A DNA stretch of 64,000 nt from Escherichia coli. GTDB lineage: Bacteria > Pseudomonadota > Gammaproteobacteria > Enterobacterales > Enterobacteriaceae. Made by a program: the position numbers and the translations under genes. The DNA lies in the NCBI RefSeq assembly GCF_001677475.2, contig NZ_CP015229.1, one strand, 5' to 3'. The notes under the pieces were generated by a model. It saw only the letters and a list, made by a program, of their open reading frames with translations, was not told where the DNA came from and did not search any database. Positions 1 to 42,666 of the stretch are shown in pieces. Numbering within the stretch: position 1 is the first letter of the stretch; every line of letters starts with the position of its first letter.

Positions 1-1311
1 ATCGATATTCTGGTGGTGGATGATGACATTAGCCACTGCACTATTTTGCAGGCTTTACTGCGCGGCTGGGGCTATAACGTCGCGCTGGCGAACAGCGGGC
101 GACAGGCGCTGGAGCAGGTGCGGGAGCGAGTTTTTGATCTTGTGCTTTGCGATGTGCGAATGGCAGAGATGGATGGCATCGCCACGCTGAAAGAGATCAA
201 AACATTAAACCCCGCGATTCCGGTGCTGATTATGACCGCGTACTCCAGCGTCGAGACGGCGGTAGAGGCGTTGAAAACCGGGGCGCTGGATTATCTCATC
301 AAGCCGCTGGATTTCGATAACCTGCAGGCGACGCTGGAAAAGGCGCTCGCACATACGCACAGTGTTGACGCTGAAACGCCTGCGGTGTCTGCCAGCCAGT
401 TCGGTATGGTCGGTAAAAGCCCGGCGATGCAACACCTGCTCAGTGAAATCGCCCTCGTCGCGCCATCGGAAGCCACGGTGCTGATCCACGGCGATTCCGG
501 CACCGGTAAAGAGTTGGTCGCCAGGGCGATTCACGCCAGTAGCGCACGGAGTGAAAAACCACTGGTAACGCTCAACTGTGCGGCACTCAACGAATCCTTG
601 CTGGAATCTGAATTGTTCGGTCACGAAAAAGGGGCGTTTACTGGAGCTGATAAACGCCGGGAAGGGCGCTTTGTTGAGGCGGATGGCGGCACGTTGTTTC
701 TCGATGAAATTGGCGATATCTCGCCGATGATGCAGGTGCGTCTGCTACGTGCGATTCAGGAGCGCGAAGTTCAGCGTGTCGGTAGCAACCAGACTATTTC
801 GGTTGATGTCCGGCTGATTGCGGCGACTCATCGCGATCTTGCCGCAGAGGTGAATGCCGGGCGTTTTCGCCAGGATCTCTACTATCGCCTGAATGTGGTG
901 GCGATTGAAGTACCGTCGCTGCGGCAACGGCGGGAAGATATTCCTCTGCTGGCTGGTCATTTTCTTCAGCGCTTTGCCGAACGTAATCGCAAGGCGGTAA
1001 AAGGTTTTACGCCCCAGGCGATGGATCTGCTGATTCATTACGACTGGCCGGGCAATATTCGTGAGCTGGAAAATGCGGTGGAACGGGCAGTGGTGCTGCT
1101 GACCGGGGAATATATTTCCGAACGCGAGCTGCCGCTGGCGATTGCCAGTACGCCGATCCCGCTGGTACAAAGTCAGGATATTCAGCCGCTGGTGGAAGTC
1201 GAAAAAGAAGTGATTCTGGCGGCACTGGAGAAAACGGGCGGCAACAAAACCGAAGCCGCCCGTCAGTTAGGGATCACGCGCAAAACGCTATTGGCAAAAC
1301 TGTCGCGTTAG
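1..1311 (+). CDS. zraR: Sigma-54-dependent response regulator ZraR (HydG); 5' end truncated by the window edge
   Basis: ORF 13..1311 in frame from position 1; receiver domain, AAA+ sigma-54 activator motifs ([14 protein letters not shown]) and C-terminal HTH; synteny upstream of purD. Confidence 0.9.
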
Positions 1312-2597
1312 TTCTGCTCGCGTTCGATAGCGCGCCAGCCGATATCTTTCCGGCAGAAGCAGTCATCCCAGTGGATATCAGTCATTAAGTCATAGGCGCG
1401 TTTCTGCGCTTCTGCCACGGTATGACCCAGCGCGGTGACGCACAGTACGCGCCCGCCGCTGGTCACCACCTGCTCGTCATCTGCCAGTTTTGTGCCCGCG
1501 TGGAACACTTTGCCGCCTTCGACTTCTTCCAGGGGCAGGCCGTGGATCACATCGCCAGTGCGATAATCGCCCGGATATCCACCCGCAGCCATCACCACGC
1601 CGAGAGAAGCGCGTTCATCCCACTCGGACGTTTTCTCGTCCAGCTTGCCTTCACAGGCCGCCAGGCAAAGCTCAACCAGATCGGACTTCATGCGCAGCAT
1701 AATCGGCTGGGTTTCCGGATCGCCAAAGCGGCAGTTAAATTCAATAACCTTCGGATTGCCCTGTTTGTCGATCATCAGGCCCGCGTAGAGAAAACCAGTG
1801 TAGGTGTTGCCTTCTGCCGCCATGCCTTTCACGGTTGGCCAGATAATTCGTTCCATCGTGCGCTGATGAACCTCATCGGTCACTACTGGCGCAGGGGAGT
1901 AAGCGCCCATCCCGCCGGTGTTCGGCCCGGTATCTTTATCGCCTACGCGTTTGTGATCCTGGCTGGTGGCCATCGGCAGCACATGCTCACCGTCCACCAT
2001 CACGATAAAGCTCGCTTCTTCGCCGTCGAGGAACTCTTCGATAACGATGCGATGCCCCGCGTCGCCAAAAGCGTTGCCCGCCAGCATATCGTGAACAGCC
2101 GCTTCCGCTTCTTCCTGCGTCATCGCCACGATAACGCCTTTCCCGGCAGCCAGACCGTCAGCTTTAATGACGATTGGCGCGCCTTTCTCACGCAGATACG
2201 CCAGCGCAGGTTCTACCTCGGTGAAGTTCTGGTATTCCGCCGTAGGGATCTGATGGCGGGCCAGGAAATCCTTGGTAAACGCTTTCGAGCCTTCCAGCTG
2301 CGCGGCACCTGCGGTTGGGCCGAAGATTTTCAGCCCGGCGGCGCGGAAGGTATCCACCACGCCTTTCACCAGTGGCGCTTCCGGGCCGACGATGGTTAGA
2401 TCGATCTTTTCGTTTTGCGCGAAATCCAGCAGCGCCGGGATATCGGTTACGCCGATAGCGACGTTTTGCAGTGCAGGCTCCAGCGCAGTGCCTGCGTTAC
2501 CCGGAGCAACAAAAACAGTTTCAACCAGCGGCGACTGGGCCGCTTTCCAGGCCAGCGCGTGCTCGCGCCCGCCGTTACCAATCACTAATACTTTCAT
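1308..2597 (-). CDS. purD: Phosphoribosylamine-glycine ligase
   Basis: 429-aa ORF recognised as PurD (ATP-grasp); overlaps zraR stop; forms purHD operon. Confidence 0.95.
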   Translation of the reverse strand: MKVLVIGNGGREHALAWKAAQSPLVETVFVAPGNAGTALEPALQNVAIGVTDIPALLDFAQNEKIDLTIVGPEAPLVKGVVDTFRAAGLKIFGPTAGAAQLEGSKAFTKDFLARHQIPTAEYQNFTEVEPALAYLREKGAPIVIKADGLAAGKGVIVAMTQEEAEAAVHDMLAGNAFGDAGHRIVIEEFLDGEEASFIVMVDGEHVLPMATSQDHKRVGDKDTGPNTGGMGAYSPAPVVTDEVHQRTMERIIWPTVKGMAAEGNTYTGFLYAGLMIDKQGNPKVIEFNCRFGDPETQPIMLRMKSDLVELCLAACEGKLDEKTSEWDERASLGVVMAAGGYPGDYRTGDVIHGLPLEEVEGGKVFHAGTKLADDEQVVTSGGRVLCVTALGHTVAEAQKRAYDLMTDIHWDDCFCRKDIGWRAIEREQN

Positions 2598-2608: not shown

Positions 2609-4198
2609 TTAATGGCGGAAGTGGCGCATGTCGGTGAAGAGCATTGCAATACCGTGTTCATCGGCGGCGGCAATCACTTCGTCATCACGGATAGAACCGC
2701 CAGGCTGGATTACGCAGGTCACGCCCGCAGCGGCGGCGGCATCAATACCGTCGCGGAACGGGAAGAACGCGTCAGAAGCCATCGAGGAACCTTTCACTTC
2801 CAGACCTTCATCGGCCGCTTTAATACCGGCGATTTTCGCGGAGTACACGCGGCTCATCTGGCCCGCGCCAATGCCGATGGTCATATTGTTTTTGGCATAG
2901 ACGATGGCGTTGGATTTCACGAACTTCGCCACCTTCCAGCAGAACAGCGCATCACGCAGTTCCTGTTCGCTCGGCTGGCGTTTGGTGACGACGCGCAGTT
3001 CTTCCGCACCGACCATGCCCAGATCGCGATCCTGAACCAGCAGACCGCCGTTCACGCGTTTGAAATCAAGACCCGGAACACGCTCGCCCCACTGACTGCA
3101 GGTCAGGACGCGTACGTTCTGTTTGGTGGCGGTGATTTTCAGGGCTTCTTCGCTGGCGGACGGCGCAATAATCACTTCAACAAACTGACGAGAAATGATG
3201 GCCTGCGCGGTTTCCGCATCCAGCTCGCGGTTAAAGGCGATAATGCCGCCGAATGCGGAGGTCGGGTCGGTTTTGTACGCGCGATCGTAAGCATCAAGAA
3301 TGGAATTGCCGATAGCCACGCCGCAAGGGTTGGCGTGCTTCACAATCACACATGCCGGCTCGGCGAACTCTTTCACGCACTCCAGCGCCGCATCGGTATC
3401 GGCGATGTTGTTATAAGAGAGGGCTTTACCCTGAACCTGGATTGCGGTAGCAACGGAGGCTTCTTTCACATTCTCTTCTATATAGAAGGCAGCCTGCTGG
3501 TGGCTGTTCTCGCCGTAACGCATATCCTGCTTCTTAATGAAGTTCAGGTTCAGCGTGCGTGGGAAGCGACCGGCGGCTTCTTTGCTTTCACCGTGATAGG
3601 CTGGGACCATGCTGCCGAAGTAGTTGGCAATCATGCTGTCGTAGGCGGCGGTATGTTCAAAGGCTTTGATAGCGAGATCGAAACGGGTTGCAAGCAGAAG
3701 CGATCCTTCGTTGGCATCCATCTCTTTAATGATGGCGTCGTAGTCGCTGCTCTTCACCACGATGGCGACATCTTTATGGTTCTTGGCGGCGGAGCGCACC
3801 ATCGTTGGGCCGCCGATATCGATGTTCTCAACCGCATCTTCCAGCGAGCAACCTTCACGGGCAACGGTCTGGGCGAACGGATACAGGTTAACAACCACCA
3901 TATCGATAGGCTGGATCTGATGTTCTTCCATAATGGCATCGTCCTGGCCGCGACGGCCCAGAATGCCACCATGTACTTTCGGATGCAGGGTCTTCACGCG
4001 TCCATCCATCATCTCCGGGAAACCGGTGTAATCGGAAACTTCGGTTACCGGCAGACCTTTTTCTGCTAACAGACGGGCAGTGCCCCCTGTAGACAGCAGC
4101 TCCACACCGCGTGCGGAAAGTGCCTGGGCGAATTCGACGATACCGGCTTTGTCAGAAACACTGAGCAGAGCGCGGCGGACTGGACGACGTTGTTGCAT
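2609..4198 (-). CDS. purH: Bifunctional AICAR transformylase / IMP cyclohydrolase
   Basis: 529-aa ORF recognised as PurH; immediately upstream of purD on the same strand. Confidence 0.95.
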
Positions 4199-4306
4199 GG
4201 TAAATCCCCTGGATTTGACTATTACAGAGAGCGTTAGCTGAATTTTTCGCGAAAAACTCAGCTAACGCCCCTAACGGGGCATCCTTATTTTTCGCCCGCA
4301 TTGTAA

Positions 4307-4322
4307 CGAAAACGTTTGCGCA
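4307..4322. promoter_or_regulatory. PurR operator (PUR box) in purHD promoter region
   Basis: Near-palindrome acgaaaacgtttgcg about 110 bp upstream of the purH start, matching the PurR box consensus ACGCAAACGTTTTCGT. Confidence 0.55.
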
Positions 4323-4469
4323 ACGCTCGCGAATTTTTCTCTTTCAATGGTGATCACAATTTTGACAGTGTTTACCGTGGGAAAAATACAGAAATTACAT
4401 TGATGATTGTGGATAACTCTGTGCGTAAAAAGGTATAAAGCGGGGTTTTGCTGGGGAATGCAGCAGTCA

Positions 4470-4635
4470 GTCATTTTTCTGCAATTTTTCTATTGCGGCC
4501 TGCGGAGAACTCCCTATAATGCGCCTCCATCGACACGGCGGATGTGAATCACTTCACACAAGCAGTCGGTTCGGTTGAAGAGAAAAATCCTGAAATTCAG
4601 GGTTGACTCTGAAAGAGGAAAGCGTAATATACGCC
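4470..4635 (+). promoter_or_regulatory. rrnE tandem promoters P1 and P2 with AT-rich upstream region
   Basis: P1: -35 ttgcgg (4493-4498), 16-nt spacer, -10 tataat (4515-4520). P2: -35 ttgact (4603-4608), -10 taatat (4625-4630). AT-rich UP/Fis-type region upstream. Confidence 0.75.
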
Positions 4636-4670
4636 ACCTCGCGACAGTGAGCTGAAAGCCGCGTCGCAAC

Positions 4671-4690
4671 TGCTCTTTAACAATTTATCA
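4671..4690 (+). promoter_or_regulatory. rrn leader boxA antitermination element
   Basis: tgctctttaacaatttatca matches the rrn boxA (TGCTCTTTAACAA) in the 16S leader. Confidence 0.8.
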
Positions 4691-4814
4691 GACAATCTGT
4701 GTGGGCACTCGAAGATACGGATTCTTAACGTCGCAAGACGAAAAATGAATACCAAGTCTCAAGAGTGAACACGTAATTCATTACGAAGTTTAATTCTTTG
4801 AGCATCAAACTTTT

Positions 4815-6356
<1,542 letters not shown>

Positions 6357-9831: not shown

Positions 9832-9878
9832 AATAAAACGAAAGGCTCAGTCGAAAGACTGGGCCTTTCGTTTTATCT
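9832..9878 (+). terminator. rrn terminator T1
   Basis: aaaacgaaaggctcagtcgaaagactgggcctttcgttttat hairpin followed by a T-run. Confidence 0.85.
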
Positions 9879-42592: not shown

Positions 42593-42666
42593 GCCGGATG
42601 CGCCGCCAGGCGCGGCTTATCCGGCCTACGGGTAGGACGGATAAGGCGTTCACGCCGCATCCGGCG
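42593..42666. repeat. Tandem REP elements (BIME)
   Basis: gccggatgcgccgccaggcgcggcttatccggcctac followed by ggtaggacggataaggcgttcacgccgcatccggcg. Confidence 0.8.

Follow-up and report, generated by a model that had tools for sequence, protein, structure and literature searches.

Background

Among the described systems closest to the leader analysed here are the ompA-type 5' stem-loops and other hairpins that act as obstacles to RNase E scanning, as well as the pyrC and pyrD leader hairpins of Escherichia coli and Salmonella, which belong to PurR-regulated genes and act on translation. The pyrC/pyrD hairpin contains the Shine-Dalgarno sequence and forms only in transcripts begun at an upstream start, the choice of start being made by CTP and GTP levels. 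In many bacteria of other phyla, purH is preceded by the ZTP (pfl) riboswitch. The purHD operon, whose product PurH consumes AICAR (ZMP), is a textbook PurR operon that is usually presented as controlled at transcription only (by PurR and, more recently, by RbsR). The papers that first gave the purHD sequence (Aiba & Mizobuchi 1989; Flannigan et al. 1990) reportedly noted dyad symmetries and assigned no function to them; the abstract of the latter is said to describe a leader with two regions of dyad symmetry that are mutually exclusive in formation, and an mRNA 5' end mapped by primer extension.

Here we describe the purHD leader in a stretch of E. coli DNA of 64,000 nt, referred to below as the window, together with the corresponding leaders of other species. 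The hairpin encoded by a palindrome upstream of purH probably matters for the mRNA, because it is kept across Enterobacterales.

The purHD locus and its palindrome

The genes on the two sides of the leader are arranged as follows.

1308-2597, minus strand: purD
2609-4198, minus strand: purH open reading frame of 529 aa, identified as purH by annotation in NC_000913.3
4198-4196, minus strand: purH start codon, ATG
Beyond purH, plus strand: rrnE operon
4515-4520: -10 hexamer of rrnE P1, TATAAT

From 4066 to 4366 the window has the sequence of E. coli K-12 MG1655 with no differences (offset +4,203,334), and to the right of 4366 the two differ by a few SNPs and one indel, so that MG1655 itself is not the strain analysed. 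The initial annotation of this region had described a 9-bp stem upstream of purH, gttagctga...tcagctaac, whose loop is itself palindromic. The inverted repeat is found at 4233-4266 as described, but the size of the stem was understated and the supposed loop is paired too. The whole is one continuous inverted repeat of 38 bp (4231-4268; NC_000913.3 4,207,565-4,207,602 in MG1655), with two arms of 19 nt (4231-4249 and 4250-4268) that are 95% complementary and have a spacer of 0. The single mismatch becomes a G-U pair in the purH-sense (minus-strand) RNA, whose stem therefore has 17-19 unbroken pairs around a CGCG loop. RNA folding, which the annotation had proposed as a check, agrees with a stable structure: the sense RNA folds at -26.1 kcal/mol as compared with -8.3 +/- 2.6 kcal/mol for shuffled sequences (z = -6.96; equalled by 0 of 200 shuffles), and the antisense RNA, with an internal mismatch, at only -19.6 kcal/mol.

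The palindrome is far above chance expectation. With arms of 14 nt or more, no more than one mismatch and a loop of up to 8 nt specified, the 64-kb window contains four such palindromes, and 20 shuffles of it contain two in total. Besides the purH palindrome and one at 9833-9876, which we take to be an rrn T1-type terminator, these are:

42616-42645: REP-like palindrome
56260-56289: terminator-like palindrome

Of 5426 complete E. coli genomes, 5419 have the element at a single locus; the other "place" counted in each is the match of the palindrome to itself on the opposite strand. A repeat of the REP, BIME or ERIC kind was rejected on this single copy per genome. The window likewise holds one pattern match and one strong match to a covariance model of the leader; a weak match to the same model at 54495-54586 on the plus strand (16.5 bits, E about 0.1) is probably due to chance.

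The palindrome is accompanied by three further structural features of the mRNA.

4233-4266, minus strand: P2 core, 15 pairs (one G-U) with the CGCG loop at 4248-4251
4267-4280, minus strand: P1, a small GC hairpin (GCCCC-GUUA-GGGGC) directly 5' of P2 on the mRNA
4227-4232, minus strand: conserved 3' flank GCUCUC, which can pair with the GGGG strand of P1 (4268-4271)
4202-4216, minus strand: weak predicted hairpin AAAUCC-AGG-GGAUUU, containing the Shine-Dalgarno sequence AGGGGA (4205-4210)

The adjoining P1, which competes with the outer pairs of P2, had been overlooked in the annotation. P1 with its flanks folds at -12.3 kcal/mol (z = -3.6), and its last two nucleotides double as the outermost nucleotides of P2. 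Pairing of GCUCUC with GGGG lengthens P2 to ~22 bp, and this extension is present in minimum-energy folds. The local hairpin around the Shine-Dalgarno sequence is confined to Enterobacteriaceae proper. The two dyad symmetries of Flannigan et al. presumably correspond to P1 and P2, whose outer pairs overlap.

The purHD promoter and the probable position of the hairpin in the transcript

Every pur operator is said (He et al. 1990) to overlap its promoter. At purHD the promoter elements lie immediately upstream of the palindrome.

4306-4321: PurR operator ACGAAAACGTTTGCGC, which has two mismatches to ACGCAAACGTTTGCGT and is alone in the window in matching it with three or fewer
4300-4305, minus strand: inferred -10 hexamer TACAAT, abutting the PurR box
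4293, minus strand: inferred transcription start G4293, 7 nt after the -10 hexamer and 25 nt upstream of the hairpin

The PurR operator that the annotation had placed near purH is confirmed, its sequence ACGAAAACGTTTGCGC being identical to the box given for purH-purD by Cho et al. 2011 (PMC3159470). A second operator for PurR or RbsR inside the palindrome was rejected, as ACGCAAACGTTTGCGT with up to three mismatches matches at 4306-4321 only. The box is followed by TA[C/A/G]AAT in the window and at 40 of 41 Enterobacterales loci. As the PurR box adjoins this conserved TACAAT, and pur promoters generally have their PurR site between the -35 and the -10 element (PMC3159470), the start of transcription is placed near G4293. 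The resulting leader would be ~95 nt long, with P1 at nt 14-27, P2 at nt 28-61 and then 33 nt to the AUG. To judge by the position of the promoter, the hairpin is probably transcribed, and its proposed location in the purHD 5' UTR, downstream of the PurR box and the conserved -10 hexamer, is well supported, albeit indirectly through this inferred start.

Several other sequences were noticed in the same region. Copies of ATTTTTCGC lie at 4242-4250 and 4287-4295, and ATTTTTCTC lies at 4333-4341, with a spacing of 45-46 bp; the middle copy of ATTTTTCGC (4287-4295) coincides with the inferred leader start and shows complementarity with a part of the P2 5' arm, the two segments being GCGAAAAA and TTTTTCGC (4249-4256 with 4288-4295). 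A perfect DnaA-box consensus, TTATCCACA, is located at 4408-4416 on the minus strand, with the purHD promoter on one side and rrnE P1 on the other; it is the sole copy in the window, with 0.4 expected by chance, and it also occurs upstream of purH in two Rosenbergiella loci (L056 and L059). Over the rrnE promoter and leader (4460-4693, plus strand), sub-threshold Rfam matches to Ysr197 (Yersinia sRNA 197) reach 115 bits, as compared with a gathering score of 167, and such matches are also found at the purH loci L013, L023, L027 and L031. The Ysr197 family seems to be an rRNA operon leader, and the matches confirm that an rRNA operon is divergent from purH in several genera.

Conservation across Enterobacterales

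The first 200 residues of PurH were searched against one genome per species, which gave 80 loci. The leaders of 32 Enterobacterales, including members of Escherichia, Citrobacter, Enterobacter, Cedecea, Erwinia, Pantoea, Serratia, Yersinia and Rahnella, were aligned (alignment A1). Conservation across enterobacteria had been named in the annotation as a further check, and the P2 hairpin is present in all 32 aligned leaders. RNAalifold recovered both P1 and P2 from the alignment unguided. In the named structure 89.4% of cells are paired, as compared with 30-42% when the 3' partners are slid by one to three columns. Double-sided changes occur in 7 of 15 pairs, a value matched by 0 of 500 shuffles, and all four P1 pairs in the alignment carry double changes. 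The pair at columns 42 and 141 is GC in 19 species, CG in seven, UG in three and UA in two. In Yersinia thracica (L035), which is outside the alignment, the next pair, often mismatched elsewhere, has become A-U, and the leader scores 63.6 bits with the covariance model. At DNA palindromes, template switching can yield compensatory changes in one step; covariation therefore carries less weight here than it would in an ordinary helix.

Folded alone, the P2 segment of each of the 32 species always gives one long hairpin, of 36-100 nt and 14-34 bp. The tip of P2 differs in nearly every genus and is often a fresh palindrome itself. Stems in Citrobacter and Enterobacter have only ~15 bp, with a mismatch, and the internal mismatch of many genera is a perfect duplex in Escherichia. 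Mean pairwise identities along the leader are as follows.

CUCUC flank 3' of P2 (4227-4231): 0.86
Shine-Dalgarno region: 0.84
Each P2 base arm: 0.82
purH third codon positions: 0.55
P2 tip: 0.49
Leader 5' end: 0.43

These identities indicate that the P2 base is under purifying selection. In addition, the paired columns hold ~45 G-U cells vs ~11 A-C cells, and the mean fold energy is -19.0 kcal/mol for the sense RNA vs -17.2 kcal/mol for the antisense (Wilcoxon p = 0.006, uncorrected for phylogeny). The covariance model built from the alignment scores the window at 106.7 bits in the sense direction and 24.7 bits in the antisense. Variants within Escherichia are few, being either C-to-U changes, which give G-U pairs, or a 1-nt bulge. 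The signal, as read from the alignment, is strand-specific, for the sense RNA. Conservation, covariation and strand asymmetry together support the view that the hairpin is a functional RNA.

The alternative is that no RNA function has been selected, and that the palindrome is an old insertion remnant, or is kept by a template-switching bias, and has been tolerated. Such persistence would suit the repeated replacement of the tip by new self-complementary sequence, as palindrome-driven mutation predicts, and the lack of the hairpin in several lineages. We nevertheless give it little probability: the stem base, at 0.82 vs 0.55 for synonymous sites, has held from Escherichia to Yersinia and Rahnella, the element is single-copy, Vibrionaceae have an unrelated hairpin at this position, and the G-U asymmetry indicates selection on the sense RNA.

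Among the Enterobacterales, the leaders of Rosenbergiella, Edwardsiella and Budvicia are short or different and lack such a stem. In Photorhabdus caribbeanensis (L037) the purH leader reaches ~260 nt through an insertion at ~440-540, and the enterobacterial hairpin is unrecognisable there; by eye, the insertion (...gggaacgaatccctgggagcatag...) looks like an ERIC-type repeat.

Leader hairpins outside the order

The covariance model built from the enterobacterial alignment found no match in Vibrionaceae, Aeromonas or Pasteurellaceae. However, most Vibrio, Aliivibrio, Photobacterium and Grimontia have a long purH leader hairpin of their own, with a conserved base AAGGUCUUUACCAAAACUGG ... UUUUUGGCAAAUAUCUUU and a variable tip.

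L039, L042, L043, L045, L048-L050, L052, L057, L058, L060, L062, L066, L068 and L069: Vibrionaceae hairpin loci, the hairpin lying ~40-130 nt upstream of the purH ATG at 1501

RNAalifold shows compensatory changes at 8 of 22 pairs of this hairpin, and predicts a second, downstream helix whose loop contains the Shine-Dalgarno sequence. The Vibrionaceae hairpin has no match in Rfam. That it is homologous to the enterobacterial hairpin was rejected, the sequences being unrelated and the model blank; the two are analogous, not detectably homologous. Two Vibrio (L041 and L053) and the Pasteurellaceae have no such hairpin. The hairpin is thus dispensable, given that some Vibrio, Pasteurellaceae, Rosenbergiella, Edwardsiella and Budvicia are without one.

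The Vibrionaceae leaders also bear on the neighbourhood of the E. coli hairpin. The annotation had put the rrnE P1 UP region at about 250 bp, which is roughly right: reckoned from the -10 hexamer at 4515-4520, the distance to the hairpin is ~200 bp. This proximity is probably irrelevant to the hairpin, since the Vibrionaceae analogue has no rRNA gene within 1.5 kb upstream; an rRNA gene was found at that distance in 0 of 7 non-enterobacterial loci (five Vibrionaceae, one Aeromonas and one Oceanisphaera).

A role at the DNA level appears very improbable. The palindrome would in that case serve as an element between the divergent purHD and rrnE promoters, either a cruciform that absorbs supercoils or a set of paired half-sites, or P2 and P1 would act on the plus strand as a weak antisense terminator. 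The 38-bp palindrome is indeed AT-rich with a perfect centre, both DNA strands fold (-14.7 and -15.9 kcal/mol), and the GC hairpin at 4267-4280, with its T-rich tail, is picked up on the plus strand by a terminator scan. However, the spacing between the conserved arms ranges from ~14 to ~78 nt, and is therefore incompatible with a fixed site for a dimer. G-U pairs are mismatches in DNA, extrusion is made less likely by the big non-palindromic tips that many genera have, the antisense T-tract is not conserved, and the analogue in Vibrionaceae is not beside an rRNA operon.

Comparison with defined classes of leader element

The leader was compared with the classes of element that a hairpin at this position might represent. 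An intrinsic terminator or attenuator was rejected, the mRNA strand having no U-tract (GCUCUCUGUAAU follows P2 and GUUAGCUG follows P1). The terminator scan flagged nothing on the minus strand of the leader, and purH is absent from the supplementary tables of an E. coli 3'-end mapping study (PMC7815308), as far as those tables go. A riboswitch or other Rfam family was also rejected: there is no conserved internal loop, and cmscan of 4100-4800 with E-values up to 10 returned no family match, the only match over the hairpin being a chance miRNA (23.8 bits, as compared with a gathering score of 76). An Rfam scan of 12 related loci gave no match.

Other candidates concern the sequence itself. The hairpin-base 9-mer AGCTAACGC recurs in rrsE (5674-5682, plus strand), and mimicry of 16S rRNA was considered; there is no extended similarity, and the match is taken as chance. 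The window contains three matches to AGCTAACGC, with 0.43 expected, and two of them are the palindrome's own arms. A leader peptide or upstream ORF was rejected, there being none in E. coli and none conserved across the set. In two Erwinia loci, L022 (~275-330) and L026 (~330-385), a common 17-codon ATG ORF is present (MTKIDVTLLSMRTKAKG and MTRVDVTFLSVRTKTRG), which begins within the hairpin's 3' arm and ends 5 nt short of the purH ATG.

GGA motifs of the CsrA type flank the hairpins, AAGGAUG at 4287-4281 and AGGGGA at 4210-4205, and the upstream one is absent in L001, L006 and L009. Direct targeting by CsrA, bridging the two GGA sites, was rejected, because four data sets (CLIP-seq, co-purification, prediction and cross-linking) give "No" for purH (PMC5694010 Supplementary Data 2). 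The same source gives purH mRNA a wild-type half-life of 10.0 min, which falls to 4.9 min when csrA is mutated. As purH is negative for CsrA binding in these data, the effect of CsrA on purH mRNA stability is indirect.

Processing by RNase III was a further candidate. The duplex would be cut to create a new 5' end that alters the decay or translation of purHD, as in the rnc and pnp leaders. With 17-19 bp, or ~22 bp with the extension, the E. coli duplex reaches the ~20 bp or more expected of an RNase III substrate; it attains 34 bp in other genera, and a variable tip on a maintained long helix would suit an enzyme that reads shape. In contrast, recognition of shape leaves the sequence-invariant base unexplained, in Citrobacter and Enterobacter the stem is mismatched and only ~15 bp long, and the cleavage sites of Gordon et al. 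2017 covered here include none in the purH leader, the sole one among them in the purH-rrsE spacer being the rRNA-leader site 4207874 (about window 4540). We consider such processing improbable.

As a generic cis-element, the leader has a structure that is kept across species, with covariation and on the sense strand. It is best described as an unnamed addition to the ordinary class of conserved mRNA leader stem-loops, outside every defined family tested.

Possible function of the leader

That the hairpin modulates translation or stability, as the annotation suggested it could, is plausible. The two readings that follow are more likely than processing by RNase III, persistence without selection or a role at the DNA level. 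The best explanation, to which we give about an even chance, is a constitutive, cis-acting structural element of the leader. The palindrome would be the DNA image of the stable P2 stem-loop in the ~95-nt purHD leader, ~33 nt before the AUG, and P2 would act in cis on the transcript, separately from repression by PurR. As a rigid element, P2 would fix the folding of the leader, shield a long untranslated stretch from 5'-end-dependent access by RNase E, and possibly also hinder the loading of Rho. It would also keep the pyrimidine-rich stretch downstream, together with the Shine-Dalgarno sequence, in a defined context. The lifetime and the translation of the mRNA would in this way be tuned constitutively. 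This role as stabiliser and insulator is a proposal. A structural role would fit the free tip, and, by analogy, the unrelated hairpin in Vibrionaceae. The half-life of purH mRNA is longer than those of purK, purN and purM (5.6-6.5 min in the wild type; PMC5694010 Supplementary Data 2), which weakly fits a role in stability and is only suggestive, because the table is sorted by another variable. However, a structural role leaves the sequence invariance of the P2 base and of GCUCU unexplained.

A two-state translational switch, the main rival, which we regard as doubtful, would explain why the P2 base, GCUCU and the G run are invariant. The GGGG strand (4268-4271) would have two alternative partners: CCCC (4276-4279), which gives P1, and the CUCU flank, which gives the longer P2. 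In the second state the freed CCCC would pair with the Shine-Dalgarno GGGG (4206-4209) and block initiation. The balance is proposed to be set by a protein on the conserved P2 base, by temperature or by folding kinetics. Both the minimum-energy and the centroid fold of the 95-nt leader are the state that hides the Shine-Dalgarno sequence, and the constrained ensemble energies of the two states lie 0.6-1.4 kcal/mol apart at lengths of 98, 128 and 194 nt. With the leader folded alone, the probability of anti-Shine-Dalgarno pairing is at least 0.4 in 20 of 32 species. In locus L012, a G-to-A change in P1 turns a G-U pair of the extension into A-U, and the extension has a probability of 0.86 (in a fold that includes 6 untranscribed nt). 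However, when the first 30 nt of purH are included, anti-Shine-Dalgarno pairing drops below 0.15 in 26 of 32 species, so the prediction depends on context. In addition, runs of C and G pair very easily in silico, and the G run, the C run and CUCU hardly vary, which leaves little room for covariation. If these predictions hold, the purHD leader could be an unrecognised two-state element of post-transcriptional control, made up of the P2 base, GCUCU and P1 and independent of PurR, with an independently evolved counterpart in Vibrionaceae; we put this forward very tentatively.

Comparison with known systems

A search of the open-access literature returned no paper combining 'purHD' and 'hairpin'. 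What is new here, being absent from the searchable papers, is the order-wide pattern of conservation and the analogue in Vibrionaceae; the dyad in E. coli has reportedly been known since 1990. A leader structure that is spread across the order, with a base conserved like the ribosome-binding site and an analogue in Vibrionaceae, suggests an extra, post-transcriptional layer of control. Should the hairpin do no more than stabilise the message, it would be an ordinary feature that is useful to annotate and a candidate for Rfam. Should it be a switch or a site for a protein, enteric purine and one-carbon metabolism would gain a new regulator.

Like the ZTP riboswitch, the purHD element is a cis-acting RNA in a purH leader, but it is a simple hairpin without a conserved junction or internal loop and without an Rfam match. 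With the leaders of pyrC and pyrD it shares the setting of a nucleotide-biosynthesis operon that has a PurR box at its promoter and a hairpin in its leader, and these are the closest precedent for a two-state mechanism. However, P2 of purHD excludes the Shine-Dalgarno sequence, and we know of no start-site switching for purHD. A long, near-perfect duplex in the 5' UTR is also found in the rnc and pnp leaders processed by RNase III; these differ in that no cleavage in the purH leader is among the sites of Gordon et al. 2017 covered here.

The 5'-UTR elements that hinder RNase E are alike in being stable stem-loops in an untranslated leader upstream of the ribosome-binding site. They are in principle independent of sequence, which matches the free tip of P2 and the unrelated hairpin of Vibrionaceae. 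In the ompA type the stem begins a few nucleotides from the 5' end, whereas in purHD 13 unpaired nucleotides lie between the inferred start G4293 and P1 (4280); with this start, the purHD element is therefore not a classical 5'-terminal protective hairpin. Moreover, elements that hinder RNase E need no conservation of sequence, whereas the base of the purHD stem has it.
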